NCBI GenBank assembly: GCA_964617175.1
Contig: CAZTVT010000002.1
Coordinates: forward strand, 1 to 37,157
Length of the DNA stretch: 37,157 bases
Direction: 5' to 3'
Origin: an uncultured Clostridium sp.
GTDB taxonomy: Bacteria; Bacillota; Clostridia; TANB77; CAG-465
Part shown: positions 2,043-29,751 of the stretch, one piece after another
Layout of the letters: every line of letters begins with the position of its first letter
Numbering within the stretch: the stretch's first letter is position 1
Position numbers and translations under genes: made by a program
Notes under the pieces: generated by a model
Databases searched by the model: none
What the model was told of the DNA's origin: nothing
Seen by the model: only the letters and a program-made list of their open reading frames with translations

Positions 2043-3106
2043 CTCATTACTTTACCCTTGCGTTTAATCCATACAACGGCTTTTTTTACAATACCATCTA
2101 CTTTTATAAAAACTTTAGCTTGTTTTATAATATCTTCATTCTTTATATAAGCCGTTTTTATGTTTCCAGTTGCTTGTATTTTTATTTCAACATAGTTTAA
2201 ATATGTTTTACTATTTTGTGTTGTTCTTATATAAAGTCTAGCAGTATATGAATTAGAGTTTTTTAGTTGTTTATATAGTTCTTTCATTTCACTTTCTATA
2301 ATATTGTATATCCCATTATTGTCATATTCTTTATAATTAACAATTGCAGTATTGCCATCAACTTTAAAAATTCCAGCCTCAACTTTTGCGTTAGCTGGAT
2401 TACTATATTTCATATTTAAATTATTTCCAATTTTTAGTATAGAATCATAAGTGCTTATTTTAGCTATATCATGAGTAGTTATACTAATATTACTTGATTC
2501 TGTCCAAAGTCCGCTATCAGCTCTTCTTATACGTGTTCTTATATAATAAGTAGTATTTGGATTTAAATTACTTATAACATATGTATTTCCGCCGTTACAA
2601 TCTTGCCATGCTCCACCATTAATACTATGTTGCCATGCATTTATACTACTATCTGCTTCCCAATGAATTGAAACAGTATTAATACTCTTTGCACTTGCAT
2701 AATGTTGCGTAAAATTAGCATAACGTGGTATATATGATAAATCCATCCAGCCACCACAACTCATATTTCCAGGAGTATATGAAGCACTTGAACTTTGGCT
2801 ATAACTTGCACTACAATATATTGATTTGCTACCGTCTGCATTGTGCCATACATTTTTATCACCACTTGCAATAGTTATAGCACCACCTGCACTAAGAGAT
2901 TTTTGAGAATACGCATTATAAACTTCACCGTCAACATTTACAACAATTGTACTTCCTATTGCACTAAAACTATAATTACCTGTCGCTCTTAATATAACTT
3001 CCCAATGTACACTACTATAATTTTCGGCACTTGTCCAGTTTTCCCATACATTAAGCTCTAATCTATAATTTCCGTTTATACTACCTGTTGCACTCCAACT
3101 CGCCAT
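2033..3106 (-). CDS. Baseplate/receptor-binding type structural protein (DUF859-like N-terminal domain plus fibronectin type III-like domain)
   Basis: 357 aa. The N-terminal pattern (NGNYRLELNVWENWTSAENYSSVHWEVIL...VWHNADGSKSIY) resembles the siphovirus DUF859 family. The central stretch VSIHWEADS...NLNPNTTYYIRTRIRRADSGLWTESS is FN3-like. Confidence 0.6.
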   Translation of the reverse strand: MASWSATGSINGNYRLELNVWENWTSAENYSSVHWEVILRATGNYSFSAIGSTIVVNVDGEVYNAYSQKSLSAGGAITIASGDKNVWHNADGSKSIYCSASYSQSSSASYTPGNMSCGGWMDLSYIPRYANFTQHYASAKSINTVSIHWEADSSINAWQHSINGGAWQDCNGGNTYVISNLNPNTTYYIRTRIRRADSGLWTESSNISITTHDIAKISTYDSILKIGNNLNMKYSNPANAKVEAGIFKVDGNTAIVNYKEYDNNGIYNIIESEMKELYKQLKNSNSYTARLYIRTTQNSKTYLNYVEIKIQATGNIKTAYIKNEDIIKQAKVFIKVDGIVKKAVVWIKRKGKVMRCI

Positions 3107-3117
3107 ATACTCACCAC

Positions 3118-3744
3118 CTATTCATCAAAATATTGTAAATATATCTGACCTTCATTTAGATCACTTGCTGATGGAATATCAGCACCGTCTTTTATTTTGC
3201 TTGATAACATATAAGCACTTCCGTCTTCAACTTCAGATATTATTGTTCTTAATTCTTCTATTAATGCACCAGCATCATTATTTATTTTTCCGTATATGCT
3301 TTCAAAATTCAAAAAACTTCTAGTATCTTTAAATTCTGATATTCCTACTGCACTTGTTTTAAATTGTGCAAGCTCTATTTGATAAATATTTCCTGTTTCA
3401 AACACATCTTCTTGTGTTAACTTAGGATAAGCAGTAGTACTTTTTAAAACTTTAAATTTTACTTGTTCAAAATCACTTTCTGTATTTTCTTTGCTTAAAT
3501 CTAGCTCACAAATTAATTTACAATAAGCATCATTTGCACTTACCTCTACTGTTTCATCTCCAACAACCTCAATAAAACCGCCTCTAATACAGATGTATCC
3601 CTGATTAACAGTTATACTATTACTCGTATTACTTAAATTGCAGCCTTGAATTATTCCAGAATTTCCATCCAAAAAAGTATCTATAAAAAGTCTAAAAACT
3701 TTATTAGCAAAAACTTGTTCACTATATGTATGACCTCTTAGCAT
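3118..3744 (-). CDS. Hypothetical baseplate/tail protein
   Basis: 208-aa ORF between the Tal-like and DUF859-like genes. Its start abuts the upstream stop. Confidence 0.5.
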   Translation of the reverse strand: MLRGHTYSEQVFANKVFRLFIDTFLDGNSGIIQGCNLSNTSNSITVNQGYICIRGGFIEVVGDETVEVSANDAYCKLICELDLSKENTESDFEQVKFKVLKSTTAYPKLTQEDVFETGNIYQIELAQFKTSAVGISEFKDTRSFLNFESIYGKINNDAGALIEELRTIISEVEDGSAYMLSSKIKDGADIPSASDLNEGQIYLQYFDE

Positions 3745-4991
3745 TATTTCTTCATCTCCTTTTTTAATTTATCTATAAAATCAATCCTCATATTTCCTGT
3801 TGTATACTTTATAAAAGCACCACCAGTATCTTCTATTGCAGAAATATAAGTATTTAAAATCAAATTATTATTAGTTTTAATACTTATCTTTGTTCCAATT
3901 TTCATATTTTGAATATCAAATAGTTTAGTATCTCTTTTCAAATTAAATGTAATCATATGTTTATATCTATTGGATTTAAATATATCTAAAGCCGTTTGCT
4001 TTGCATCGTCTACTTTTGCCGTATAAACAGTTTCAACAATTCCATCTGCTCTGTTTTCATCATCTTTGTTATCTGTAGTTGTTCTATCAGATAATAAATA
4101 CCAGCTATGTTCACTTTTATCCTCACAAAGAACCGTTACTTTAGCGGTTACATCTTTTTCAAACATTTCTGTGTAATTTGATACATCGCTCAATGTTGCA
4201 TCGATTTTTCTTTCTTGTTCTTCTTGTTTATAAATTGATAACTTTAATCTTTTATTTTCATACTTGAAATCTAAAGCTATATCATAATTTTGAGTACAAT
4301 TTGTAACAAATGTATGAAAATTGTATATACCGTTTTCATTATCAATTGCTTTTTGTATTTTTGTATGTGTTAATATTTCAACATCTAAAAAATCTAAATT
4401 AAGTAACTGATCATCACTTTGTGTAAATTGATTTTGTATAGTATATAAAATAAAGTCTTCAATACCTTTCTCGGATATTAAAGACTCATTTTTTAATATT
4501 ATTTTTCTATCAAAAATGTTAGATATATATTTACAAGTTATACTCTGTTTAATTTCCCCATTTTCATTTACAATATCATCTACTATTCCTATATAATCAA
4601 TGCTATTATTCCTTTTAATAAATGCAAAATCTTTATTTGATATGTTATTCTTTTTCATAATATCGAACGTTGTTTTAGCATTTGTTTCTTCATCTATGTT
4701 TATATTATAATTCTCATATTTAACTATATCTTTTATTTTAAAAGTTTTCCTATCTAAAAAGTACACTAATTGTTCTTTTAATATGATTTTTTCATATTGT
4801 TTTTTTAGTATTTGTATTTTCTTTGTTTCATAGAGTGTATCACCATAAGGTTCTGTCGCTTCAATATTAAGAATTTTTACTCCACCTATTTCGCCAGATG
4901 GTAATTCACCTTCAAAGAATCCTGAATCTTTATTATATGTAAGTATATACTCTACATCTTCAAAATTAACTTTAACTCTAACTTCATCCAT
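3744..4991 (-). CDS. Tail-associated protein (Tal-like, no obvious lytic domain)
   Basis: 415-aa ORF directly after the Dit gene. The call rests on position and size in the siphovirus tail-tip module. Confidence 0.6.
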   Translation of the reverse strand: MDEVRVKVNFEDVEYILTYNKDSGFFEGELPSGEIGGVKILNIEATEPYGDTLYETKKIQILKKQYEKIILKEQLVYFLDRKTFKIKDIVKYENYNINIDEETNAKTTFDIMKKNNISNKDFAFIKRNNSIDYIGIVDDIVNENGEIKQSITCKYISNIFDRKIILKNESLISEKGIEDFILYTIQNQFTQSDDQLLNLDFLDVEILTHTKIQKAIDNENGIYNFHTFVTNCTQNYDIALDFKYENKRLKLSIYKQEEQERKIDATLSDVSNYTEMFEKDVTAKVTVLCEDKSEHSWYLLSDRTTTDNKDDENRADGIVETVYTAKVDDAKQTALDIFKSNRYKHMITFNLKRDTKLFDIQNMKIGTKISIKTNNNLILNTYISAIEDTGGAFIKYTTGNMRIDFIDKLKKEMKK

Positions 4992-4992
4992 T

Positions 4993-5841
4993 TTACACCG
5001 CCTTATATTCTACAAAAATTGTTAATTTTGCATCTGTTATTTCACTATCCGCAGATAATCTTATTTCAGATACACCTTGTGGAATTTTTATAAAGTTGTA
5101 TTTTGCTAAGTCTAAATCATCAAAAATATTTGTTAAAGTTCCATCTTGATTTTCTTTATAAACATATAATTCATCATCTTTAGTAGAATATAATATTTTC
5201 TCATATTCTTCTAATGTCATATTAAAATTAATTTCTGCTATTTTGTTTTTATTAGAATATATAGTTAAGCAAGGATTTATAACATAACCTCCTATTTCAA
5301 GTTTTATAGGAGCTTCTACATGTCCATTATTTTCAAAAGTAAAGCTTCTATTGTCATAACTTTTAAACCTACTATCCCATTTAAAATCCCACCTAATTTC
5401 ACCCGTGTTTTTTGCCATATCATATACTGTTTCTGTTTCTTCATACCAAAGACTTTTACAATTAAAATTAATAGGAATATGTAAGAAACCATCTGTGCTT
5501 TTTTCTCCTTTTTCAACACTAGACACTTCAACAATTTTATAATATTTTGTGGTATTTTTATTAATAAATGGTATTTCATATACAAATTTTAAACTTTTTG
5601 CTTGCTCAATATAATCTACCATATTTTTATAATTATCATAATTTCTAAATATTGCCTCACCTAATATATTGCCTTGTTGCAACTTTCTTATATTAGTTAT
5701 AAAGTTATTCCCTACCTGTTCATAACTAGTATCATAAGCATATCCCAGCCCTGATGGAGAACTTAAAAAGCAATAATTGTCTCTATCCATCAAATCATAT
5801 TTTTGCCCTTTTTCATTTTCTAAATAAAATTTTCTTACCAT
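4993..5841 (-). CDS. Distal tail protein (Dit; siphovirus tail component family)
   Basis: 282 aa, the first tail-tip gene after the tape-measure region. The pattern FENNGHVEAPIKLEIGGYVINPCLTI is typical of Sipho_tail proteins. Confidence 0.7.
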   Translation of the reverse strand: MVRKFYLENEKGQKYDLMDRDNYCFLSSPSGLGYAYDTSYEQVGNNFITNIRKLQQGNILGEAIFRNYDNYKNMVDYIEQAKSLKFVYEIPFINKNTTKYYKIVEVSSVEKGEKSTDGFLHIPINFNCKSLWYEETETVYDMAKNTGEIRWDFKWDSRFKSYDNRSFTFENNGHVEAPIKLEIGGYVINPCLTIYSNKNKIAEINFNMTLEEYEKILYSTKDDELYVYKENQDGTLTNIFDDLDLAKYNFIKIPQGVSEIRLSADSEITDAKLTIFVEYKAV

Positions 5842-6769: not shown

Positions 6770-9739
6770 TTATATTTGCATACCAAATCTTCTATTTACT
6801 GTATCTATTATTCTATTCATTTCATTATTATCTAAATGTTGTGTATTTATAACTATATTAGGTTGTAAAATTTTAGGTTGTAATTGTGTGCTTATTGTTT
6901 GTGATATACTATTTTGCAATTTAGGAATATTCTGCAAGGAGTTAAAGTTTAAACTCATTGTTCCATTAAACTTATTCATAAGTTCTTGACCAAATTTAAG
7001 CATATTATTTATAGTATTTGATTTTTCTTTATTAATTCCTTTTGGTATACCTTTTAGCAAATTAATAGCTGCTTTTTCTGTTTCTTTAGATGGTGAATGT
7101 TCATCCCATGCTTGTTGTCTTATTGCATTTAGTCCCTCTACACCGAAACTATGCATACTACTTAAAGCTTCTTGTCTTAATAATCTATTGTTTATACCCT
7201 TAGAAACACCCCTTATCCAATTTTTACCAGCTTCTTCAAATTTTGATGATATATTTAACTGACTTACTGCTTCTTCACCTAAATACTTAACTGCATCTTT
7301 TACGCTAATATCATTTCTAAGTGCAGCCGTTATCTCATTAATTTTATCTTGCATAGTTTTTGGCATTGTCGAAATGGCTCTTTCATATTCTTCTCTTGAA
7401 CCCTGTGCTAAATTTATCCATGCCTCTTTTACATCTGGTGCCATTTCATCTGTAGTTGATGTCATTGAAATTAATTCATCAACAAGTAATCTAAGATTTT
7501 TTTTAGATGCTTCTAAATTTGTGGCATAAGTAGAATCTTTTATGTCTTTATTATATTTTGATTCAACATTATATAATCTTATTGCTTCATTATTTGAGTT
7601 AACCAGTATTTTCATTCTTTTGTTAATTTCTGTACTAGTTGTATTTGTTATATTAGTTTGAGATGTTACAACACTTTCTTCAATTTTTTTATAACTTTCT
7701 TCTGTTCCTTCAATCATTAATTCAGAATTTTTTTCAAATTTAACTAAAGCCTCACTATACTTTTGTAATTGTGACTTTTGCTCTTTATATAAGCTAGAAA
7801 GTTGTTCTACTTGGTCTTTATATTCTTTTAATTTCAACTCGCCTTCAATTATACTATATTTCGAACCCACAAAACCTTTTTTATAATCTTCATTTAATTC
7901 ATTATAATTCTTAATAGCTTCGCTTAATTTATCTTGCGTTTTTATATAATCTTTAGTAGCCTGTGTTTTATTTTTTATTGCTTCTTTATACTCTTCTTCG
8001 TTTGCTTCCAAAATAAGTTGAGCTTTCTTTTTATCAATTAATTTATCAATACTTAAACGCATATCATTATATGAAGTTATTATATCATTATTTAACTCAT
8101 ATTCTGTCCCTAAAGCATTATTTAGTTGATTTAATATAAATTTTACTCTTGATTCATAACCTTCTTTTACTTTCCCATTTGATTCAACCAAATTATTTAA
8201 TTCTGAATATAGCCTTTGTACATTTCCAATCTCAGCTAAGTTAGCACTTTGTTGTTCATTTATTATATCTATTGAATTTTTACGTGTATTTACAGAATCT
8301 TCTAAACTCTTTATAAAACTTTGTGTTTCTTTTGCTTCTTCTTTAACTTTTTGGCTAACTAATGAAATGCCAACTGCAAAACTACTTAAAGCTAAAGTAG
8401 CAACCCCAAAAGGGCTTATAAGTCCTTTTATCCCACTCGCTAACGAATTTACACTTGCACTAGTTGATTTTGTGCCTGTTTTTACAACAGCTATTGCTTG
8501 ACTAAATTGTCCTGTTGTTTTTATAACTGTACCTATAGCACTTCCAAGCTTACCAAATATTTTCAAAACAGGTCCAGCTGCTGCAACGAACAAACCTATT
8601 CTTATAATATTATCTAATGTTGCATCATCCATATCATCTAATTTGTCTATCCATTTATCTGCTTTATCTATCCATTTATCTACTATTGGTAACAACTTTG
8701 ATGATAGTTTACTTCCCATGTTTTCTAATTTAGAAGTTAATTTTTGTACTTTAGATGTAGTATTTACATTTACTTCATCTCCATACTTTTTAGTAGTCTG
8801 CTCTAATATACCAAACAATCTAATTTGTTGTTGTGTTTGAAAATCTAATTGATTCCAACTTTTATCTCCAGCAAATCTTTTAAAAGCATCTGTACTCTCT
8901 AGTAGCGAAACATTAACGTTTACTCCTAAATCTTCAATTGCTTCAGTATTTCCAAGCAAACCAGAACGTATCCTATCCATTACGTCTTCCATTGTTCTGC
9001 CTGTCGCTGAGGCGATTACAGATGATGCTTTAAGTAAATCTTGTGTATATTGTGCATTTTTAGTTTGATCATCAGTCATAGATTGTATTAAATTACCAAA
9101 AATTTGCGAATATTTATAGGCACTTTTTGAAGACATATTATAGCTTAATGCTGTATTATTAGCAAACTCTTTTATTGTATCAGAAGCTTCTCCATATATT
9201 TTTTCAACTTGTTGAATGGAAGCTTCCTGTTCCATAGCTGATTTTGTTCCTAATGTTCCTAATGCAATAATTGGTAATGAAAATCTAGTAGTAAATTTAC
9301 TGCCCAAATTATCAATTTTAGAACTTACTTTTACTATTTTATCTCCAAACTCTTCTACTTTTTTGCCATTTACATTCCAAGCATCTTGCTCTAATAGTAA
9401 TTTGTTTAATTTTATTTTTGTATTTTCTATATCTTTTTGTAAGGCCCTCCAATTTTCTTCTGAAATTTTTGCACCATTTTTCTCAGCTTCTATAGCTTGA
9501 GCGTATATATCTTTTAATTGATTCAATTTATTTTTTGTTGTTTCAATATTTTCGCTTAATACTGCTTGTTTTTGACTTAATAGTTCCGTGTTTTTTGGAT
9601 CAAGCTTAAGCAAACGATTAATTCCAGTTAATTCCTTGCTTAAACTCGATGTTGCAGAATTAACTTTACTTAACGCTTTTTGAAGACCACTTGTATCTCC
9701 GCCTATTTCTACTATTATTCCTTTTATGCTTCCTGCCAT
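6770..9739 (-). CDS. Tail tape measure protein
   Basis: 989 aa, the largest ORF, coiled-coil rich with a central hydrophobic segment. It lies downstream of the tail chaperone pair. Confidence 0.9.
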   Translation of the reverse strand: MAGSIKGIIVEIGGDTSGLQKALSKVNSATSSLSKELTGINRLLKLDPKNTELLSQKQAVLSENIETTKNKLNQLKDIYAQAIEAEKNGAKISEENWRALQKDIENTKIKLNKLLLEQDAWNVNGKKVEEFGDKIVKVSSKIDNLGSKFTTRFSLPIIALGTLGTKSAMEQEASIQQVEKIYGEASDTIKEFANNTALSYNMSSKSAYKYSQIFGNLIQSMTDDQTKNAQYTQDLLKASSVIASATGRTMEDVMDRIRSGLLGNTEAIEDLGVNVNVSLLESTDAFKRFAGDKSWNQLDFQTQQQIRLFGILEQTTKKYGDEVNVNTTSKVQKLTSKLENMGSKLSSKLLPIVDKWIDKADKWIDKLDDMDDATLDNIIRIGLFVAAAGPVLKIFGKLGSAIGTVIKTTGQFSQAIAVVKTGTKSTSASVNSLASGIKGLISPFGVATLALSSFAVGISLVSQKVKEEAKETQSFIKSLEDSVNTRKNSIDIINEQQSANLAEIGNVQRLYSELNNLVESNGKVKEGYESRVKFILNQLNNALGTEYELNNDIITSYNDMRLSIDKLIDKKKAQLILEANEEEYKEAIKNKTQATKDYIKTQDKLSEAIKNYNELNEDYKKGFVGSKYSIIEGELKLKEYKDQVEQLSSLYKEQKSQLQKYSEALVKFEKNSELMIEGTEESYKKIEESVVTSQTNITNTTSTEINKRMKILVNSNNEAIRLYNVESKYNKDIKDSTYATNLEASKKNLRLLVDELISMTSTTDEMAPDVKEAWINLAQGSREEYERAISTMPKTMQDKINEITAALRNDISVKDAVKYLGEEAVSQLNISSKFEEAGKNWIRGVSKGINNRLLRQEALSSMHSFGVEGLNAIRQQAWDEHSPSKETEKAAINLLKGIPKGINKEKSNTINNMLKFGQELMNKFNGTMSLNFNSLQNIPKLQNSISQTISTQLQPKILQPNIVINTQHLDNNEMNRIIDTVNRRFGMQI

Positions 9740-12317: not shown

Positions 12318-13526
12318 TTAAACACTAGCAGTTAATTTACCATAAGTGAATGATTTTGGTTTCTTGTTACCATCAGCTATTAAGTAACCACCATATACAA
12401 CTCTTCTTGGTTGTACTTTTACTTCTTTATCAATTCTTAATGATTCGTTGAAGTTTAGTACATAGTTTTGTGCATTACCAACAACTATGTCTCCTGCTTT
12501 TAAGAATGGATCAGCTTCTATTGTTGCTCCACCAGCTCTTCCAAGTCCTGCTACTAGATATGGATAATTTCCATTTTCATCTTTGTAGAATGCAATTTCA
12601 TCTGCTACATTTGATGCAACATATACTTTTGCACCTACTCTATTTTCTTCATCTAGATCACTTAGACAAGCTTTTATAAGTTCAATTGCTTTAGTATTTG
12701 TTTTTGCAGTTAATCCGTTTGTTATTCCTGTAGGTTGTGCAGATCCTGTTCCATAAATAACTGCATTTATTAATGCCTTATTCATTTTTACATTTAATTC
12801 ATCTAGTAAGAAACTTATAAATCCATCAACAGTCATTGATTCAGCTTTCCAAGTTATTTCAATAGCTTTAGCTAGTTCATGACCAGTTAATTTAATATTT
12901 TTATATTCTTGACCTTCATTTTTTGTTGTAGTCATTTCAGCATACCATTCAGCATCATCTGCAGCAAATAGATATGGAAAATCTACATTTCCATTTACAT
13001 TTAATTTTCTTATATCTCTATAAATTGGTGAAGCTTGTTCAATCATTTTTAACCAATCTAATCTTACAGATTCAGGAATTAATAATCCTAAATTGTTTAT
13101 TCCTTGTGTATTAGATGCACTCGCAGTAAATGTTGTTGAAGTAGTTCCTATAGCATCACCTAATGCTCTTTTTTCAATATCATCTAACTCTACTCCCATT
13201 AAAGTTTTTGCCCAAGCACTTCTATACTCTTTATCAGCTATTGTAAATTTTCTTTTTTCTTCCATTTCTTTTTCCTCCTTAATTACTTTTAATTCTTTTG
13301 TGTCTAAATTTCTTTGCTCAATTTCTTGAGTATCAGCTATTAGACTTCTTTCTTCTTCATGGCTTATTTCACCATCTTTTTTTTCTTCAGTTTCTTCTTG
13401 TTCTGGAACTTCTTTATTTATAGCTTCAACTTCTTTTCTTAATTCAGTTAATTCTTCTTGAGTTTTAGCCTCAGCTATTTTATTTAAAAGTTCAGCTTTT
13501 CTTTTTTCAATTTCTTTTAATGTCAT
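12318..13526 (-). CDS. Major capsid protein, HK97 family (with N-terminal coiled-coil delta-like region)
   Basis: 402 aa with a Glu/Lys-rich N-terminal ~100 aa followed by the HK97-fold region. It follows the prohead protease gene. Confidence 0.9.
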   Translation of the reverse strand: MTLKEIEKRKAELLNKIAEAKTQEELTELRKEVEAINKEVPEQEETEEKKDGEISHEEERSLIADTQEIEQRNLDTKELKVIKEEKEMEEKRKFTIADKEYRSAWAKTLMGVELDDIEKRALGDAIGTTSTTFTASASNTQGINNLGLLIPESVRLDWLKMIEQASPIYRDIRKLNVNGNVDFPYLFAADDAEWYAEMTTTKNEGQEYKNIKLTGHELAKAIEITWKAESMTVDGFISFLLDELNVKMNKALINAVIYGTGSAQPTGITNGLTAKTNTKAIELIKACLSDLDEENRVGAKVYVASNVADEIAFYKDENGNYPYLVAGLGRAGGATIEADPFLKAGDIVVGNAQNYVLNFNESLRIDKEVKVQPRRVVYGGYLIADGNKKPKSFTYGKLTASV

Positions 13527-13553
13527 AATAAAAATCCTCCTTAAACATTAAAT

Positions 13554-13632
13554 AGCAGTTCTACCACCACTTTTATAAATACTCTATTTTGTTTCTACCA
13601 ACAAAAAATGAAGTAGTTCTACCACCACTTCA
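13554..13632 (-). repeat. Three tandem mRNA-sense hairpins with identical 8-nt loop UGGUAGAA (A 13609-13632, B 13587-13606, C 13554-13571)
   Basis: A: UGAAGUGG[UGGUAGAA]CUACUUCA followed by U6. B: UUUUGU[UGGUAGAA]ACAAAA. C: AGUGG[UGGUAGAA]CUGCU. The stems differ and the loop is invariant. Confidence 0.8.
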
Positions 13633-13641
13633 CTTTCAAGA

Positions 13642-14193
13642 TTATAAACTTAATAATAATTTTAATTTTTCTTTTTCTAGTTTTAATTCTTTTTCTTTAA
13701 TAAATTCTTCTTTACTTCTAGCGACCACATTTGTAGATTCATAAAAAGGTACATCTACGACAGAAACATCAAACAATTTATCAATACTTAATATTCTTCT
13801 TGTATCTGTTTCATAATCATATTCTTCTTTATCTACTGTAAAAGCAAAACTACATTTATCTATTAGTCTTGCAAGTACCATTTTATATACATCTTTATTA
13901 CTAGATGTATCTATTAATTCAGCTCTAAACTTAAGTCCTATATCATCAACTATTAGTTTCAAGCTTCCATTTCTAGTTCTAGCTAATATTAAGAAATTAT
14001 CTTCATGATTATATTTCAATGATACATCCTGCATATTACAGTTATTAAAAGCTTTTTTATCTACTATTTCTGTATATCCGTAATGAGTTGCAGGACTATC
14101 AAACATAACTGCATATCCTTCAAGTATCATCTTATCTTCATTATCTAAAGCTCTTACTTCTAAATATCTTGATTCTTTTAAATGTTTTTCCAT
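13642..14193 (-). CDS. Prohead serine protease, HK97 family
   Basis: 183 aa between the portal and capsid genes, with LKYNHEDNFLILARTRNGSLKL...SFAF typical of Peptidase_S78. Confidence 0.85.
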   Translation of the reverse strand: MEKHLKESRYLEVRALDNEDKMILEGYAVMFDSPATHYGYTEIVDKKAFNNCNMQDVSLKYNHEDNFLILARTRNGSLKLIVDDIGLKFRAELIDTSSNKDVYKMVLARLIDKCSFAFTVDKEEYDYETDTRRILSIDKLFDVSVVDVPFYESTNVVARSKEEFIKEKELKLEKEKLKLLLSL

Positions 14194-14195
14194 TA

Positions 14196-15395
14196 TTAGT
14201 CACCTCCTTGATAATTATTTGCAATTCTTCCATCTATGTAATTTAGACTTTGTATAATCTTATTACCTTCTTCTCCTCCAATAGGCGGAAGGTCTATTAT
14301 TTCTCTTCCTTCATCTACTTTTAACATTGCTCTATCTCCTGCTTCCTTGAGTAATAATATTTTTGTTTTTAAACTTGCATATTGTAATCTATTGGCAGTA
14401 AATACAATTTTATGACCTTCTTTTCTAGCTTTTATACTAAATACTTTATTTGTAAAAGCATCACTCATTTGTATTGCACGGGGTTCAATTACTCCCTCAT
14501 AAAATGCATTCCATTCCTCTTCTGTAAAATTATTTCTAACAATACTTTCAGATATTCCAAAATAATCAAATATATTATAATTTACTTGTTCTAATTGTTC
14601 TTTATCTAATGTAATTGGTTTTAAATTTACTTCCTTAAAATCAGCTTTTGCATCCATTGCAGCAATTCCACTTTCATTTTCTAAGTTCAAGAAATCATTT
14701 ACAAAAGCCTCTTTGCTTGCTTTTAAGTCTTTGTCTTTTAGCATTGCATTTTCATATTTCAAAATACCTTTCAAGTTACTGCTTGTTTTTATAGCATTTT
14801 TTATGCCTTCGGATGCTGTGTGCGCTGTATCTATATCTGTTTTTAATACTTTATTATTTGTACCAAAAATATCATGCCTATTATAGAATAATCTTAAATG
14901 TATCAATTCTAAATAAGACAATATATATTTCTTACCATTAATAAATTTAAATTCTAAATATATATTGTTCTGACTATCTTGTAATAAATTATAGTTTGAT
15001 GCTAAAACAGGATAAAACCCTGTTATCATTCCTTCCTTATTTTTAGCTATATATACAAAAGCATTAGAATCTGTATATAGCATTGATATAACTTTATAAA
15101 TAAAATCAAACTTAGTCATTATAGGATTAGGCATATTTTGTAACAAAAAGTTTATATCACCTTTTATACAATTACTTATACTATCTTGTATATGCTTTGG
15201 GATTAACTTTGCACAGTGTGTAGCTATTCTATCTATGCACTGTCTTGCAACTTTACTATCATAAGTATTGTTTCCAAGAGTTGTAAACTCCGCATTATAA
15301 TTATTCAATAATTCTAATCTTGTTTGCGTAACTTTTTGTTTTTGATTGTTCTTTCCAAAAAACACGTTAAATAAGCTTCGTTTTTCTTTACTCAT
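14196..15395 (-). CDS. Portal protein, HK97 family
   Basis: 399 aa directly downstream of the large terminase gene. Confidence 0.9.
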   Translation of the reverse strand: MSKEKRSLFNVFFGKNNQKQKVTQTRLELLNNYNAEFTTLGNNTYDSKVARQCIDRIATHCAKLIPKHIQDSISNCIKGDINFLLQNMPNPIMTKFDFIYKVISMLYTDSNAFVYIAKNKEGMITGFYPVLASNYNLLQDSQNNIYLEFKFINGKKYILSYLELIHLRLFYNRHDIFGTNNKVLKTDIDTAHTASEGIKNAIKTSSNLKGILKYENAMLKDKDLKASKEAFVNDFLNLENESGIAAMDAKADFKEVNLKPITLDKEQLEQVNYNIFDYFGISESIVRNNFTEEEWNAFYEGVIEPRAIQMSDAFTNKVFSIKARKEGHKIVFTANRLQYASLKTKILLLKEAGDRAMLKVDEGREIIDLPPIGGEEGNKIIQSLNYIDGRIANNYQGGD

Positions 15396-15396
15396 T

Positions 15397-17097
15397 TTAT
15401 CCCTCCTGTAACGCTAAATAATCATTCATTTTATCGAATAAAACACAGTAAGCTATTATTAAACTTACTGTGCCATCTATTCTTGCTCTTTGTTTTTGCC
15501 CTTTAACAGGTCTTATATTATCATTTTCATCCCTTTTAACTGCTGTATTACATAAACACCATTTTAAAATAGGATTGTTATTATAATTTATATTTTTTTC
15601 TATTAAGTCAGCTTCTAATTGTTTCATAGGATTAGACATTGTTTTTGCTCCTTGTCTTACTTCTACCATTTCAAAACCTTGCTCCTTCATTTCTTCAACC
15701 CAATACTGAGTATTCCAAGGGTCATAACCAACCCATAAAGCTGATATATCATATTCATTATGCATTTTTAAAAACCATTGTGTTACATCACTATAATTTA
15801 CTCTAGCTCCATCACATATTGTTACAAGACCTCGTTTCTCCCATTTATCGTAAGGGATTTTATCATCTTTTATTTTAAATTCTAGTCTTTCACTAGGTAT
15901 AAAATATTGTTGTACAATGTATTTTTTCTTATTTTTCATAATTAATAAAGTAGCACAAGTCAAGTCTGTTGTACTTGATAAATCCACTCCTCCAATTGCA
16001 TAAGTATCAAATAAATCTTCTATATTGTATTTATCTTCATTGTTTGCAATATCAAAAGTCAACCATTTATCTTGGTCATTTTGTCTTATGTTAAAATCTT
16101 TACAAAGTAAATTTGTAAGTTCAGTAGGATTATTTTTCGCTCTATTTACTTTATCTCTTAAGTCTTTTATATTTTTTATTGTTCCTAATCCAGGGTTAGC
16201 TTTATACCATTTTTTCTCATCTTGCCATTCATTAGGATTATCTAATTCATATATAACTGGAAGTACTGTTTCATCTACTACTTCACTTTTATTTTCATAA
16301 CCTGCTATAATATCACTAAAATATTCGTATTCATTATCAAATACACTTTCTCTTATTGTTCCCATAGTAGAAGTTTCTAATAACATTGGCTGTTCTCTAG
16401 CACTCATAGAATCATACATTACATCCAACAAATTTTTATCTTTCCAAGCATGTACTTCATCTGCAATTACAAAGTGAGCATTTAATCCATCAAGTGAATT
16501 ACTATCACTTGCTAACGCTTTTAAAAAACTTTCTGTTGCATCGTAATATATTCCACCTACTAAACATCTAATACGTTTGTTTAGTGCTGGTGATTTTTTT
16601 ATCATTCTTTTTGCTTCATCCCAAACGACTTTTGCTTGATCTTTTTTAGTCGCCACTGAATATATTTCAGCACCACCTTCACCGTCTTTTGTTAGCATAA
16701 AATTAGCAAGTCCACTATCCATAGTAGATTTTCCATTCTTACGACCTATAAACAAAGCTCCTTTTTTATATTTTCTTATTCCTGTATCTTTATCAACAAA
16801 TCCAAATAGAGCTTGTATAAATGCTTTTTGAAATAGTTCTAACTTAACTGGTTTACCAGCCCATTTTCCTTTTGAGTGTTTACAAAATTTTTCTATAAAT
16901 TCAATAGGTAAATTACCTCTTTTTTCATCAAATATAAAGGTATGTGTTTCATTTTCTTCTGTTATAGCATTAAAAAAAGAAACCTTTTTTGGTTTCTTTA
17001 TATCATCTACTAATTTTTTATATACTGTTAAAACTTTATGACATGCTTTATCTGGATTAGTTTTTAAATATTTATAATATTCTTCTATATAAGTCAT
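15397..17097 (-). CDS. terL: Terminase large subunit
   Basis: 566 aa, Walker A-like GRKNGKST and a C-terminal nuclease region. Its start overlaps the small-subunit stop. Confidence 0.95.
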   Translation of the reverse strand: MTYIEEYYKYLKTNPDKACHKVLTVYKKLVDDIKKPKKVSFFNAITEENETHTFIFDEKRGNLPIEFIEKFCKHSKGKWAGKPVKLELFQKAFIQALFGFVDKDTGIRKYKKGALFIGRKNGKSTMDSGLANFMLTKDGEGGAEIYSVATKKDQAKVVWDEAKRMIKKSPALNKRIRCLVGGIYYDATESFLKALASDSNSLDGLNAHFVIADEVHAWKDKNLLDVMYDSMSAREQPMLLETSTMGTIRESVFDNEYEYFSDIIAGYENKSEVVDETVLPVIYELDNPNEWQDEKKWYKANPGLGTIKNIKDLRDKVNRAKNNPTELTNLLCKDFNIRQNDQDKWLTFDIANNEDKYNIEDLFDTYAIGGVDLSSTTDLTCATLLIMKNKKKYIVQQYFIPSERLEFKIKDDKIPYDKWEKRGLVTICDGARVNYSDVTQWFLKMHNEYDISALWVGYDPWNTQYWVEEMKEQGFEMVEVRQGAKTMSNPMKQLEADLIEKNINYNNNPILKWCLCNTAVKRDENDNIRPVKGQKQRARIDGTVSLIIAYCVLFDKMNDYLALQEG

Positions 17098-17429
17098 TAA
17101 TCATCACCAAATTTTTCAAACCCATCATCTTTTGTAGGCTCATTTCCAATTGGTAACATATCGTTTAATTGTTTGATAACTATTGTATAATTTTTTAAAG
17201 TAGTATTATAAGATTTTAAGGCTGGATTTTCTCTTTCAATATCATATTCGCCTTGACACATTTTAGTAATAACTCCTAAATCTTCTACTTTTTTTCTTAA
17301 TTTTTTTAATGTGTTTTCTAAAAACTCAGCTTTATCCAATAATGACAAAGCTAATTTACTTTTGCCATCACCAAGAGTTTCATAAACACTTTTTAATTCA
17401 TTTAAATCTAATGTTTTTTTCTTTGCCAT
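17097..17429 (-). CDS. terS: Terminase small subunit, P27 family
   Basis: About 110 aa directly upstream of terL. ATG at 17429 is preceded by GAAAGGA; the ORF-track start at 17447 is a TTG. Confidence 0.75.
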   Translation of the reverse strand: MAKKKTLDLNELKSVYETLGDGKSKLALSLLDKAEFLENTLKKLRKKVEDLGVITKMCQGEYDIERENPALKSYNTTLKNYTIVIKQLNDMLPIGNEPTKDDGFEKFGDD

Positions 17430-17520
17430 TATTTCACATCCTTTCAAAGGTGGGGGTCATATAAAATAACCTGCGTATTTTTCGAAGGCCCTCTCACCGT
17501 TTCCCATTCAATAGTCTTTT

Positions 17521-17767
17521 CTATCGAATATGGGGGGTATCAAATCTCCAAATATATCCTCCTGCTGTCTTTCGTCTATAATTACAACATTTACCTATAT
17601 TAGTTTTGCTTATGTTAGTTTCTCTAACCGCTTCAGCAATGCAATCATATCTCTTTATTATATTTCCCTTTAAATCATATTGCACAACTCTTTTAGCTGC
17701 TGGATTATCTTTGCCATACCTTCTTGATTTTTCCTTTATATTCTTCGATATCTTTCCATATTTCCAT
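17521..17767 (-). pseudogene. Remnant of a NUMOD4/NUMOD1-type homing endonuclease lacking the catalytic core
   Basis: ATG at 17767 gives MEIWKDIEEYKGK (NUMOD4-like start), then a stop after 20 codons. The +1 frame continues as ...KDNPAAKRVVQYDLKGNIIKRYDCIAEAVRETNISKTNIGKCCNYRRKTAGGYIWRF, a NUMOD1-like HTH. Confidence 0.55.
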
Positions 17768-17869: not shown

Positions 17870-18173
17870 TTACTTTTTAATTAAATTTCCTTCATTGTCA
17901 AAGTAAAACTCATCTTCTTTACTAAAATGTATTTTATTATGACAGTCTTGGCAAACACTTTCTAAATTCTCTATGTTAAAAAATACATTGTCATCTTCAT
18001 AATTCTTGTCTGTTATATATTCCTTATGATGTATTATATAAGCACTGCTATATATCCCGCTTCTTTAAACATCTTTCACATAAAGGATTTAATATTAACT
18101 TTTGCTTTCTTAGCTTTTGCCATCTTTTACTTTTATATTTCTTTGCTATTTCTAGATTATCTCTGTATGTCAT
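17870..18173 (-). pseudogene. Terminase-associated HNH endonuclease interrupted by a 1-nt frameshift
   Basis: 304 nt, not a multiple of 3. Frame 1: MTYRDNLEIAKKYKSKRWQKLRKQKLILNPLCERCLKKRDI-stop (stop at 18048-18050). The next frame continues GIYSSAYIIHHKEYITDKNYEDDNVFFNIENLESVCQDCHNKIH... Together they form a complete HNH motif. The lesion is in the CGGG run at 18056-18060. Confidence 0.75.
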
Positions 18174-18605: not shown

Positions 18606-18651
18606 TTGTTTACCACTACCTTTTTATTACTCATTTCTTAAAATAAGCATT

Positions 18652-18677
18652 AAAAAAGCAGCCCGTTATTGGACTAC
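18652..18677 (-). terminator. Intrinsic terminator just upstream of the late operon
   Basis: Minus-sense GUAGUCC-AAUAAC-GGGCUGC (two G.U pairs) followed by U6. Confidence 0.5.
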
Positions 18678-18704
18678 ATTGTATTTTTTTATTGTCTAAT
18701 TTTG

Positions 18705-18734
18705 TTGACTTGTAATATTACAACATGTTATAAT
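18705..18734 (+). promoter_or_regulatory. Sigma-A-type promoter of the candidate toxin gene
   Basis: TTGACT (18705-18710), 18-nt spacer, TATAAT (18729-18734), with TG at the extended -10 position. Confidence 0.65.
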
Positions 18735-18776
18735 TAATTTGGCTCCAATCTGTTAGCCAGAAAGGAGGTACAATTA

Positions 18777-18866
18777 ATGTTTCTATTTATTGTGTTTGTG
18801 AATGCGATAACTGATTTTATTAATGCTATTAGCAATTTTATTTCAATTATTCGCAAACACAAATAA
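18777..18866 (+). CDS. Candidate type I toxin: 29-aa hydrophobic peptide with basic C-terminus
   Basis: SD AGAAAGGAGGT (18759-18769) lies 7 nt before the ATG. Peptide MFLFIVFVNAITDFINAISNFISIIRKHK. It has its own promoter and a strong terminator. Confidence 0.6.
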   Translation: MFLFIVFVNAITDFINAISNFISIIRKHK

Positions 18867-18870
18867 GGCC

Positions 18871-18904
18871 AATAGCTTGAGCGCCAACTCAAGCTATTTT
18901 TATT
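18871..18904 (+). terminator. Intrinsic terminator of the toxin transcript (loop CGCCAA)
   Basis: 11-bp stem AATAGCTTGAG / CTCAAGCTATT, loop CGCCAA (18882-18887), then a T-run. Confidence 0.85.
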
Positions 18905-18929
18905 ATATGCAATAAATTTATATTTATAC

Positions 18930-19073
18930 GAAAAATGAGAGAGTAGCGCCAACTACTCTCTTACAACTAAATGTTTCTATTTATTTTACCCTTTCAAGAA
19001 AGGAGGTGAATAAAAAAATGAATTTTCATTTCACCATTGTGCAATAAGATTACATAACTTGTTTTCTTACTGT
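18930..19073 (-). ncRNA. Candidate antitoxin sRNA (~140 nt), convergent with the toxin gene
   Basis: Bounded by the minus-strand promoter at 19080-19108 and a 9-bp terminator hairpin at 18938-18961 followed by U5. There is no SD-led ORF. It contains perfect antisense to the toxin SD block (18997-19007) and to the toxin start region (18970-18985). Confidence 0.55.
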
Positions 19074-19079
19074 ACTTAC

Positions 19080-19108
19080 AGTATAACATAACCGTTATAC
19101 ATTGTCAA
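19080..19108 (-). promoter_or_regulatory. Sigma-A-type promoter of the candidate antitoxin sRNA
   Basis: Minus strand: TTGACA (19108-19103), 17-nt spacer, TATACT (19085-19080), with a TG extended -10. Confidence 0.7.
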
Positions 19109-19437
19109 GTGTTTTATGTAATCTTATAAAAATTATTTGACACCTCATGAAATTTGTATGAATAATAGCACTACCATAATAGATAGTGCTATATAAGAGG
19201 ATGATATGAAAACTAAGGTTTCCCTTGTCTGTATTTTATATTATAATTTTTAGCCTTTAAAACAGAAAAACTTGACTAAATTGAAAACGAGTTCCTTTTC
19301 TCTCATTCACATTTGTACTTACCACCAATTTCAAATGCTTATATTCAGTTTTTACTATGATTCGTGTGGTTCAATCACCTCATAGATTTCTTGGTACCTG
19401 TTATCTAATCAGTATAAATACTTGTTATTAGATATGG

Positions 19438-19471
19438 TGGTAGTAATTAGCGTACTACCAATGCTTTTTTT
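19438..19471 (+). terminator. Plus-strand intrinsic terminator in the ORF-free island
   Basis: TGGTAGTA-ATTAGCG-TACTACCA, then ATGC and T7. Confidence 0.55.
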
Positions 19472-19571
19472 ATCAATTTTTATTAACAAGAGACCTTTTT
19501 TCAAGATAGTTAATTTTCTTAGAGAAGTTTTCCGATACTTCTCACTATACTAATTATAACACGTTTGTTTT

Positions 19572-19592
19572 AAAAAAGTGCGGCACTTTTTT
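19572..19592. terminator. Bidirectional terminator at the end of the early/middle operon
   Basis: AAAAAAGTG-CGG-CACTTTTTT, overlapping the stop codon of the 218-aa gene. Confidence 0.5.
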
Positions 19593-21781: not shown

Positions 21782-22994
21782 CTAATTTTTAGATTTAAAA
21801 TTATAAATAGGTTTTATAATTCTTTCTACTTCTACAGTATCTTTTATATTGTCTAATATTTCGTGCATTGGCTTATAAACAAATGGTGATTCGTCTATTG
21901 TTTCCTCAACTACACTTGTTGTATATATACCTTTCATACTTTCTTTAAAATCTTCTAACTTAAATGTTTCTTTAGCTTTCATTCTTGACATTATTCTTCC
22001 TGCTCCATGAGGTGCTGAACAATTCCAATCTTCATTTCCTTTACCTACTGCTATTATTGAACCATCTCTCATATTTATTGGTATTAATACCCTTTCACCT
22101 TTTTTAGCACTTATTGCTCCTTTTCTTACTATGTTATCATCAAAAGAAATATAATTATGTATTGTTTCAAATCCATTATTTGTAAAATATAATGCCATTG
22201 ATACACCTGAATATTCTTTTAATATTGTATCTGCTATCATTATTCTATTTATAGTTGCATATTCTTGACATATTTTCATATCGTGCAAATACATTTCTCT
22301 ATATTTACCTTCTAAATAACAAAGTTCATTTGGTAAATCAGATTTATTATTTATATATTCTTTTTCTAACTCTTTCAAAGCCTTTTGTATTTCTGACTTT
22401 CTACCTTGTTTTTTATATGTATTTATTATTTCTTCTTTTCTTTTAAACATTTCTTCTTTTCCAGAACATAACTGTATAGCTAAATTTTGATAATAATCTG
22501 CAACTTGTTTACCTAAATTTCTGCTGCCAGTATGTATAACTAAATATTTATTATTATCAGTATCTACATCTATTTCTATAAAATGATTTCCACCACCTAA
22601 AGTGCCTATTGCTCTATTGAATTTTTTAGTTTCTTTTAATTCTCTTAAACAATATAATTCATTTATAGGCGTAAACTCTTCTAATTTATGTTCTCTTATA
22701 TTTCTTCCACTAGGTATATTTTCATTGATTACTTTATCTAATTTTTCTAAATCTAAATCAATATTCCCTAATTCAACACATAACATACCGACAACCTATA
22801 TCTACTCCTACAATATTAGGTATTACTTTATCACCTAAATCAGCTGTAAATCCTATTACACACCCTTTTCCAGCATGGACATCTGGCATAATTCTCACTT
22901 TACAATTTTTAAATGGTTTTTGTTCTAACAATAAATTAATTTGTTCTACTGCCTCTTGCTCTATATTGCTAGTAAATATTTTTAAATCACTCAT
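21782..22994 (-). pseudogene. rtcB: RtcB-family 3'-phosphate RNA ligase split by a 1-nt frameshift
   Basis: 1213 nt, not a multiple of 3. The upstream ORF carries MPDVHAGKG and ends VGVDIGC-RYVMC-stop. The downstream ORF starts MLCVELG and carries GGGNHFIE and SAPHGAGR. Removing one base at 22790 restores VGVDIGCGMLCVELG. Confidence 0.85.
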
Positions 22995-28907: not shown

Positions 28908-28936
28908 TTTACAAATATCATTCAGAATGGTATAAT
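28908..28936 (+). promoter_or_regulatory. Plus-strand promoter inside the ORF-free early-region gap
   Basis: TTTACA (28908-28913), 17-nt spacer, TATAAT (28931-28936), with a TGG extended -10. Confidence 0.55.
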
Positions 28937-28942
28937 TGTATT

Positions 28943-29337
28943 GACTTAATACCCTATGAGGTATTGTCGAAAGGATGTGATTATTTTGACAAAACTTTTG
29001 ACTTTACCCTGCTTCTTAAAGATTAGTGATTTATATGGTGGTAGAACTATATAAATCAGCTGGATAGCTTAAAATCTAAAATTCTAACTGCTATGGGGTA
29101 ACTTATTACTTATTTATTTGCAGAACTACAACTGCATAAGTGTTAGAGCTTTCATAGAATTTACGAGTGCTAGTTGTAATATTAGTTGAATATGTATGGG
29201 CATACTGATGACATGGAATGTCGTAAAATAAACGTACTGTATGAATGTATGGGCTATATACTAATTGCAAAAGTTTAAGATATACAAATTGTAGAGAAAT
29301 ACTAATCATACTAGCACTATGGTTAGTATTTTCTATT
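28943..29337 (+). ncRNA. Candidate ~0.4-kb non-coding transcript antisense to the early operon
   Basis: Starts at the promoter above and has no SD-led ORF. It contains hairpins at 28948-28965 and 29027-29058. It ends at a 10-bp hairpin (29298-29330) followed by a U-rich tract. Confidence 0.35.
29027..29058 (+). repeat. Fourth UGGUAGAA-loop hairpin (12-bp stem)
   Basis: UGAUUUAUAUGG[UGGUAGAA]CUAUAUAAAUCA. The G.U pair forms only in the plus sense. Confidence 0.8.
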
Positions 29338-29518
29338 GCCATATATCTGTAACTCTAACACCCAAATATTTTGCTAATTCGTATGCTTTTTTTAAATTAG
29401 GTATATTTTTATTGTTTTCCCACTCTGATATAGTTGTTTGCCCTATATTAAGTTCTTTTGCTATATTATTTTGTGATATTTGTTTTGTTTTTCTAATCTC
29501 TTTTAATTTACATATCAT
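29333..29518 (-). CDS. XRE-family HTH protein (second Cro-side regulator)
   Basis: 61 aa with QISQNNIAKELNIGQTTISEWENNKNIPNLKKAYELAKYLGV, a classic HTH_3 pattern. Confidence 0.8.
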   Translation of the reverse strand: MICKLKEIRKTKQISQNNIAKELNIGQTTISEWENNKNIPNLKKAYELAKYLGVRVTDIWQ

Positions 29519-29553
29519 CTACTCACCTCTTTTCTATATTTGATAATTCACTT

Positions 29554-29751
29554 TTAGTGTTGTGAAATATCAAAAAAAATATTAGTATCAAATTGAGGGA
29601 ATTGTATTTTTAGTTTCTTTATAAAATTAGAACTAGGTACTCTTATTCCCATCTCAATTTTTTCATAAAATGATTTTGAAACACCTATTTTTTCAGACAT
29701 TTCATTAATTGTAAGCCCAATTGATATTCTAAAATCTTTTAATTCTTTCAA
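29554..29751 (-). CDS. XRE-family HTH protein (Cro-like)
   Basis: 65 aa with LTINEMSEKIGVSKSFYEKIEMGIRVPS. TTG start after GGGGGTGG. It is the first gene of the rightward-to-leftward early operon. Confidence 0.75.
   Translation of the reverse strand: MKELKDFRISIGLTINEMSEKIGVSKSFYEKIEMGIRVPSSNFIKKLKIQFPQFDTNIFFDISQH

Follow-up and report, generated by a model that had tools for sequence, protein, structure and literature searches.

Why would three consecutive hairpins, all displaying the same loop, stand between the prohead protease gene and the major capsid gene of a phage? The question is raised by a stretch of 37,157 nucleotides (nt) of DNA from an uncultured Clostridium sp. (contig CAZTVT010000002.1; hereafter the window, to whose full length all positions refer), a low-GC (26.7%) temperate siphophage or prophage with its lytic genes on the minus strand. 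A preliminary description, made from the window's sequence alone, had placed three hairpins with an identical loop (A, B, and C) in the spacer between the two genes, and all of their coordinates and sequences were confirmed. As set out below, they belong to a larger conserved element, a predicted structured segment of the late mRNA of ∼95–105 nt (window ∼13554-13648, minus strand), which probably controls the amount of capsid message. In the order of transcription, its parts and immediate surroundings are as follows.

Between 13642-14193 and 12318-13526, minus strand: the protease–capsid spacer, 115 nt
13638-13648, minus strand: 5′ strand of the closing helix P1, UUUAUAAUCUU, which holds the protease stop UAA (13644-13642); the junction GA(AA) follows
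13632-13609, minus strand: core of hairpin A, with stem strand UGAAGUGG, loop UGGUAGAA, and CUACUUCA, then U6
13603-13637, minus strand: parts of hairpin A, with 13632-13625 paired to 13616-13609, the loop at 13624-13617, and U6 at 13608-13603
13587-13606, minus strand: hairpin B, UUUUGU-UGGUAGAA-ACAAAA, with the loop at 13600-13593
13572-13586, minus strand: junction UA (13586-13585) and 3′ strand of P1, GAGUAUUUAUAAA, together the whole B–C spacer
13554-13571, minus strand: hairpin C, AGUGG-UGGUAGAA-CUGCU, with the loop at 13566-13559
13524-13542, minus strand: Shine-Dalgarno sequence AAGGAGGA and capsid ATG

Hairpins A, B, and C jointly cover 13554-13637 (minus strand). The 5′ arm of B is the U-tract of A, and the stem of A can be extended to 13 bp (13637-13604; ΔG −16.2 kcal/mol). 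The loop, TGGTAGAA as DNA, occurs seven times in the window, versus 1.26 copies expected, and seven copies were reached in 0 of 100 shuffles; four of them cap hairpins (A to C, and a fourth hairpin, D, considered further below), the remaining three being stemless and part of coding sequence. The folding z-score of the 118-nt region was −3.2. The stems had been described as covarying; this did not hold within the window, where those of A and C are a 16–19-nt direct repeat with one base different, but held strongly among the relatives.

These relatives were gathered in three ways, via the capsid protein (viral contigs and species genomes), via protease alignment (metagenomes), and via a DNA pattern of three loops; an initial scan with two loops had been overwhelmed by chance and coding-repeat matches. 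The module was found at about 130 related phage or prophage loci (at least 128; viral contigs, metagenomes, and metagenome-assembled genomes [MAGs]), the sequences bearing it stemming from gut and rumen and the named hosts being uncultured Clostridium, Candidatus Onthousia, and Bacilli MAGs. It follows the protease stop in about 70 of 89 distinct sequences and is absent where that stop abuts or overlaps the next gene. Lack of conservation at syntenic positions had been named beforehand as what would speak against the motif; it was found in every related lineage with an intergenic region. A covariance model built from 29 sequences yielded exactly one match per locus in 88 loci, all on the sense strand and all after the protease gene, no match in 80 unrelated phage loci centered on RtcB (1.2 Mb), and, in 45 loci of the RNA family FuFi-1, a chance-level match on hairpins D and E (see below) only. 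When viral contigs were scanned with the triple-loop pattern, 40 of 40 true arrays followed an S78 protease gene, and the four matches outside the protease context were coding tandem repeats.

A capsid gene always follows the element, and its product has a conserved coiled-coil (delta) domain at the N-terminus; the capsid body is less than 30% identical, or undetectable, in some of the array loci. At locus L357 an additional gene (3033-3509; product of 145–158 aa) lies between the protease gene and the element, which still adjoins the capsid gene, and a remnant of the usual protease 3′ end, AAGTTTATAAT (the P1 5′ strand), is kept before the element. The capsid gene of L134 is recombinant, its protease, element (TGGATA in all three hairpins), and capsid N-terminal domain resembling the L138 lineage and its capsid body from residue 94 being 74% identical to that of the window, with the breakpoint just past the delta domain. 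In Rfam 15, region 13450-13720 gave only chance-level matches (E of 1 or more, searched up to E = 10), and nine relatives gave none at the gathering score; a tRNA scan of the window and ten relatives was negative, and no match was found in the literature on the loop sequence or on protease/capsid intergenic RNA motifs. The statement that the loop motif is undescribed thus holds for Rfam 15 and for the papers found, and by its architecture the element is a new RNA motif family and a candidate new Rfam family.

The element was initially drawn too small. The hairpins stood, but helix P1, in which the last protease codons and the stop codon pair with the entire B–C spacer, belongs to it too. The bases before the junction GA pair with those after the UA that trails B, and P1 extends outward into A/U-rich flanks. 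Because P1 closes A and B, these two sit on a three-way junction, and C comes straight after it. The inner pairs of P1 covary in a model-fitted alignment (CG 44/UA 7/AU 6; UA 40/CG 11/GC 4; CG 41/UG 13), 84.5% of its positions are paired on a MAFFT alignment, and the 5′ and 3′ flanks of a given locus pair with a median of −6.15 kcal/mol, versus −3.7 with the partners from other loci (P = 2e-12). For the element as a whole, a plain MAFFT alignment gave 93.6% pairing and compensatory changes in 16 of 23 pairs, compared with 32–53% pairing when the partners were slid by 1–3 columns as a control. The model-fitted alignment of 65 distinct sequences, which is biased towards the proposed structure, gave 94.7%; among these sequences helix A was 99% paired (compensatory changes in 8 of 9 pairs), helix B showed compensatory changes at every pair, and RNAalifold, to which the structure was not supplied, recovered A, B, and C from the same alignment. 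Helix C has compensatory changes at 5/5 pairs across relatives, and the element in total has 16–20 such pairs. Of 1218 stem pairs, 14% are G·U, which would be A·C mismatches on the opposite strand; the element is accordingly a sense-strand RNA, and the preliminary description had likewise noted that the G·U pairs form in that sense only. Outside the loops, conservation of single-stranded bases is confined to the two junctions, GA and UA, and to the U-tract. Loops A and B are 21–25 nt apart and loops B and C 29–34 nt, the distance from the protease stop to the start of the A loop is constant (20–24 nt), and that from C to the Shine-Dalgarno sequence ranges from 10 to 60 nt among relatives, with a variable A-rich linker between.

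Some loci carry additions. An optional extra hairpin lies between C and the capsid Shine-Dalgarno sequence in L126, L127, L025, L349, and L280, taking the place of hairpin C in L025; its 5-bp stem covaries, its 8-nt loop, UAAWWRUG, is conserved, and GAAAA comes next (for example, GGUUCG-UAAAUAUG-CGGACGAAAA). In L125 (∼3700-3870) and L025 (minus strand, ∼7360-7470), the protease stop is separated from the element by an insert of ∼165 nt, which comprises a promoter-like site, a tRNA-like RNA, and a terminator. The tRNA-like RNA has an acceptor-like stem, a D-arm (GCGGAAUAGGUAGACGC), a long variable arm, and a T-arm with loop UGCAAAU, has no normal anticodon arm, and was called by neither ARAGORN nor Rfam; the L125 insert is flanked by duplicated AGTTTATAA.

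The commonest loop is UGGUAGAA, with TGGTAGAA in all three hairpins of 27 distinct arrays. Its positions 1 and 8 pair (in hairpin B, U-A 43 and C-G 13 by RNAalifold, the C-G form being CGGUAGAG), so that the actual loop is a GGUANA hexaloop. Its sixth loop base is variable: L298 has C in each of its three hairpins, L308 has A in its hairpins A and C, and L328, L348, L349, and L319 have U in some of theirs. Some lineages have UGGANA, that is, a GGAN tetraloop closed by U-A, and others GGACUU or the pentaloop GNGAG. Whole arrays switch in step, with TGGTACAA, TGGACA, TGGATA, or TGGAGA in all three hairpins, and three distinct sequences are mixed in the order TGGAGA, TGGTAGAA, TGGAGA, which shows that the 4-nt and the 6-nt form can work side by side in an element and suggests that a single reader of these loops would take both. 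The loop-closing pairs vary (G-C 70, U-A 20, C-G 13, A-U 5); selection evidently acts on the loop, not on the stem. The relatives thus bear out that these are RNA hairpins of the sense strand whose loop is under selection and whose stems are free. The loop class tracks the protease clade, not the capsid N-terminus, as is expected from linkage.

By its sequence features, hairpin A is a canonical intrinsic terminator, in agreement with the preliminary description; stem, ΔG, and U-tract features are all present, in the window and in relatives. A GC-containing stem of 8–13 bp is directly followed by 5–8 U (U6 in the window), and in 60 arrays the median ΔG was −13.4 kcal/mol and a T-run of at least five followed in 54. 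Ordinary intrinsic terminators have no conserved loop, no closing helix, and no two hairpins behind them that repeat the loop, whereas A has all of these. Competition between A and B, also suggested at first, is not supported, because B overlaps the U-tract only and is transcribed after the termination decision. With a terminator upstream of the gene for the most abundant virion protein, a compensating control is called for. Two terminator-like hairpins with loops unrelated to the array are located deeper in the late operon (9790-9760 and 5897-5868, minus strand), the first preceding the tape-measure gene and the second preceding 4993-5841; they suggest graded termination or processive antitermination in the late operon.

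An identical, selected loop presented three times on free stems, with lineage-specific variants, is the signature of recognition in trans, a signature shared with boxB/N, LoaP hairpins, CsrA sites, and iron-responsive elements. From it we infer, tentatively and at somewhat less than an even chance, that the element regulates its mRNA in cis: a single multivalent reader acting in trans, most likely an RNA-binding protein, would dock on the three loops, decide the fate of transcripts at the protease–capsid junction, and control the capsid message at the level of read-through, processing, or stability. This reader may permit read-through of terminator A, perhaps also of the later terminator-like hairpins, or it may direct processing and 5′-end protection of the capsid message; in either case capsid expression would be uncoupled from that of portal and protease. 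According to tblastn, only the module from the small terminase-like gene (terS) through the tail genes is common to the window and other array-bearing loci. Since nothing but this structural module is inherited along with the element, one expects the reader to come from the host or to be a protein of that module. That the element stays next to the capsid gene in L357 counts for a capsid-linked role.

The comparison with hairpins that are read in trans, such as boxB by N or the coat-protein operators, is kept as the best working model, and the logic of the element is presumably a variant of hairpin-loop-directed control of transcript fate. Phage lambda N and boxB are the precedent for a hairpin loop read in trans. 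As in lambda nut, the hairpins are small, their stems are free while a short, purine-rich loop is kept, there are several copies per genome and lineage-specific loop variants, and there is a proposed link to terminator read-through. Set against the 5-nt GNRA-like loop of boxB, the pentaloop GNGAG and the reading GGA(N)A could adopt a GNRA-like shape, whereas most loops are GGUANA hexaloops with a closing U-A pair. In contrast to lambda nut, the array has no conserved boxA, no N-like arginine-rich protein was found for it among the window proteins (Pfam and PHROGs), it is not promoter-proximal but lies inside the late operon with a terminator as its first hairpin, and its three copies are arranged on a three-way junction in phages of low-GC Firmicutes. 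The CsrA/Rsm arrays (CsrB/RsmZ and 5′ untranslated regions) also present several free-stem hairpins with a conserved G-rich loop upstream of a ribosome-binding site, and the array class UGGANA contains their GGA; however, the dominant loop, GGUAGA, and the GNGAG class do not, no array site overlaps the Shine-Dalgarno sequence, and hairpin A is a terminator. Among Firmicutes, the NusG paralog LoaP of Bacillus binds a small UNCG leader hairpin, and RNA polymerase then passes the intrinsic terminators of a long operon (PMC12691694). Firmicute origin, small leader hairpin, and bypass of intrinsic terminators would be alike, whereas the UNCG-type loop, the single hairpin upstream of the terminator, and the non-phage setting differ, and the loaP gene is required there, while none was seen here.

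Several observations weigh against the docking of a dedicated reader. Among the ∼40 open reading frames (ORFs) of the window, Pfam and PHROGs revealed no antiterminator-like, arginine-rich, or known RNA-binding protein, and by tblastn the window has no early or regulatory gene in common with other loci that bear the array. The element was found in no cultured phage; the closest ones (Butyrivibrio Bo-Finn, Staphylococcus PhiSepi-HH1, and Enterococcus SANTOR1) gave no match to the model and have overlapping genes or an unrelated short spacer at this junction. The first binding site would be the terminator itself, which is awkward for N-type loading, and C does not overlap the ribosome-binding site, which makes simple translational repression unlikely. 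Moreover, the variable base is altered in A and C, not in B, of L308 and L348, whose protease is 86–87% identical to that of arrays with G throughout in TGGTAGAA-type loops (L358; L329 and identical copies); the identity of A and C may in part result from gene conversion between direct repeats.

Whether the same reader also acts elsewhere in the genome is a question posed by the fourth hairpin with this loop, which stands on the other strand in the following context.

28908-28936, plus strand: strong promoter-like site, TTTACA-17-TATAAT, from a promoter scan, ∼85 nt upstream of D
29027-29058, plus strand: hairpin D, with a 12-bp stem and the loop UGGUAGAA at 29039-29046
29058-29069, plus strand: mini-hairpin E, AGC-UGGAUA-GCU (3 bp), directly after D
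29083-29332, plus strand: full-length FuFi-1 RNA (RF02986), 92 bits

Place, strand, and 12-bp stem of D were as previously described; its link to the capsid array is only suggestive, the nearest relative keeping D without an array. D ends 25 nt upstream of FuFi-1, and D and E lie in the FuFi-1 leader, outside the FuFi-1 model, whose position 1 comes 14–56 nt after them. At most other FuFi-1 loci the hairpins upstream are unrelated. The only relatives of the D/E locus are L234/L249/L277, with loops UGGUAUAA and UGGACA, and a scan with an anchor pattern for further ones returned only two already known. Both changes fall on the single position that is variable in the capsid arrays, and by a rough estimate the likeness of the D and E loops would arise by chance with a probability below 1e-3. 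D and E thus probably belong to the hairpin-loop family of the array but form no part of the capsid element. The relative that shares D carries no capsid array, and its head module is unrelated; hence D is not specifically a partner of the capsid element, nor would a reader from the head module account for it. It is conceivable, if rather doubtful, that GGUANA, GGAN, and GNGAG are the recognition code of one reader (a host factor or a structural-module protein) in gut and rumen Firmicute phages that exerts N/boxB- or LoaP-like control over terminator read-through or mRNA processing at the protease–capsid junction and, in some phages, acts on the FuFi-1 leader via D and E, too.

FuFi-1 itself is located between Cro-like genes (29333-29751, minus strand) and the first early genes. 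Its transcription runs against that of the lytic genes, and its terminator is immediately adjacent to the stop of the helix-turn-helix gene 29333-29518. Upstream of it, a short ORF with its own Shine-Dalgarno sequence (28977/28986-29054, plus strand; 12–25 codons with the pattern LL(N/T)LP(C/V)xL) is conserved in most of 45 viral loci (including L232-L276) and unmentioned in the consulted passages of the FuFi-1 paper. The version of the window, VIILTKLLTLPCFLKISDLYGGRTI up to its stop codon, overlaps hairpin D with its end.

Among the explanations that compete with a trans-acting reader, the one that fares best, unlikely as it is, dispenses with any specific reader. P1, A, and B would form a self-contained three-way junction, C would be a 5′ stem-loop, and the loops would be stable GNRA-like caps; transcription from upstream would be terminated in part, and host RNase cleavage or trimming by a 5′-exonuclease would leave a protected 5′ end of the capsid mRNA. 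This would account for the conservation of P1, of the junction, and of the adjacent C, and it agrees with the finding that no reader gene is co-inherited with the element. GNGAG and GGANA (as G-N-R-(N)-A) would be GNRA-like, with the variable base at the position of the extruded base, and P1 stacked on A would be ∼20 bp long, the size of an RNase III substrate. It is also known that 5′ stem-loops stabilize Firmicute mRNAs. However, a mere stable cap need not match in three hairpins and would not switch in concert within an array, UGGUAGAA is not among the known extra-stable loops, and no helix contains a conserved receptor motif, stems and closing pairs being free.

Recognition by another RNA is improbable, whether this were the 3′ NCCA of an uncharged tRNA or a loop of complementary sequence, for which the antisense of D (UUCUACCA) on a minus-strand early transcript would be a candidate. 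Most loops do begin with UGG followed by U or A, GGU/CCA contacts occur in T-boxes and RNase P, and the sole perfect loop complement in the window is the antisense of D. Yet positions 1 and 8 of the loop pair and co-switch to C-G, leaving position 1 not free for tRNA A76, the GNGAG lineages have no UGG, no conserved complement exists in cis, and the D-sharing relative has no capsid array. For the same reasons the T-box-like pairing of UGGU with ACCA that had been brought up in the preliminary description is disfavored: neither Stem I with its specifier loop nor a 14-nt T-box with UGGN in an antiterminator bulge was found, the UGG of the array is in terminal loops, and no T-box or other Rfam match was obtained up to E = 10. 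A recurrent TTCTACNA ∼2.7 kb upstream, considered as a loop complement, proved to be the coding motif ETSTMG of the gene for the large terminase subunit.

The chances of a tandem-hairpin riboswitch, in which identical loops would bind a ligand or ion, associate, and thereby alter terminator A or the fold, are slimmer still. The clearest precedent is guanidine-II (mini-ykkC), whose tandem hairpins carry identical loops on free, unrelated, covarying stems, and one hairpin of the array is a terminator. But in guanidine-II the ACGR loops kiss around the ligand and hairpin 2 reaches into the ribosome-binding site, whereas the array has three loops without a self-complementary core (GGUANA, GGAN, and GNGAG) on a junction and no match in Rfam. 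The closing pairs are not conserved, a variable base and interchangeable 4-, 5-, and 6-nt loops within one family speak against a precise ligand pocket, termination is decided before B and C are made, and no metabolic gene is controlled.

Least probable of all is a signal at the level of DNA, in which a late activator or the small terminase would recognize the three TGGTAGAA repeats, or the −10-like P1 boxes together with TTGGTA in B would be an internal capsid promoter of the sigma-70 type: three direct repeats at fixed spacing, a TTGGTA-18-TATAAA that spans B and P1 of the window (17-nt spacer and TATAGA in L227), and the insert with its own terminator just upstream of the element in L125 are opposed by covarying stems with G·U pairs in the sense strand only, by a second hexamer without a conserved final T where the promoter scan gave no match, by P1 pairing that accounts for the A/T-rich boxes, by GNGAG lineages without the −35-like box, and by the fact that packaging sites are unexpected between protease and capsid genes.

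Three further ideas were rejected. The 80 RtcB-bearing loci, with flanks of 10 kb, hold no array, contrary to RtcB-linked cut-and-ligate splicing between the loops; neither read-through of a stop codon nor a small ORF spanning the array is compatible with frames and stops that are not conserved, as the length of the U-tract varies; and mimicry of a T-loop, a tRNA D-loop, 5S loop E, the signal recognition particle RNA (SRP), or helix 45 of 16S rRNA (16S-h45) was a matter of resemblances that were inconsistent across the loop classes.

In the window, the array is placed between genes 4 and 5 of the late module. The surrounding genes, as defined by ORFs and protein-family assignment, are the following.

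17097-17447, minus strand: small terminase-like gene (terS)
15397-17097, minus strand: large terminase
14196-15395, minus strand: portal
13642-14193, minus strand: S78/HK97-type prohead protease
12318-13526, minus strand: HK97-type major capsid protein
After the capsid gene, minus strand: connector and tail genes

A few other features of the window were recorded. Upstream of the small terminase gene, two short ORFs (17521-17685 and 18048-18173, minus strand) match fragments of HNH/homing endonucleases only and are probably a decayed terminase-associated HNH gene. A non-coding stretch of ∼1 kb (18640-19590) upstream of the late genes contains a second pair of hairpins (18871-18961, minus strand) with differing stems of 10–12 bp and the identical loop UUGGCG, both of them terminator-like. 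On the plus strand of the same stretch, a hydrophobic ORF of 29 aa (18777-18866; MFLFIVFVNAITDFINAISNFISIIRKHK) has a strong Shine-Dalgarno sequence and resembles a type I toxin. The RtcB RNA ligase (Pfam E = 2e-48) appears to be split over two overlapping frames (21782-22786 and 22773-22994, minus strand), its N-terminal PDVHxGxG part being a separate ORF of 73 aa, which could be due to a frameshift, a pseudogene, or a sequencing error; relatives of RtcB are carried by 334 viral contigs.

How Firmicute phages control the dosage of their late genes is poorly understood, and no hairpin-loop control comparable to that by lambda N and boxB was found in the literature for their structural operons. 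The reader of the protease–capsid element, once found, would define a new RNA–protein (or RNA–RNA) recognition pair, and it might explain how capsid protein is overproduced downstream of a terminator. It might also connect to FuFi-1: if one reader were indeed shared by the capsid element and hairpins D and E, this would be the first functional handle on both the element and the orphan RNA FuFi-1.

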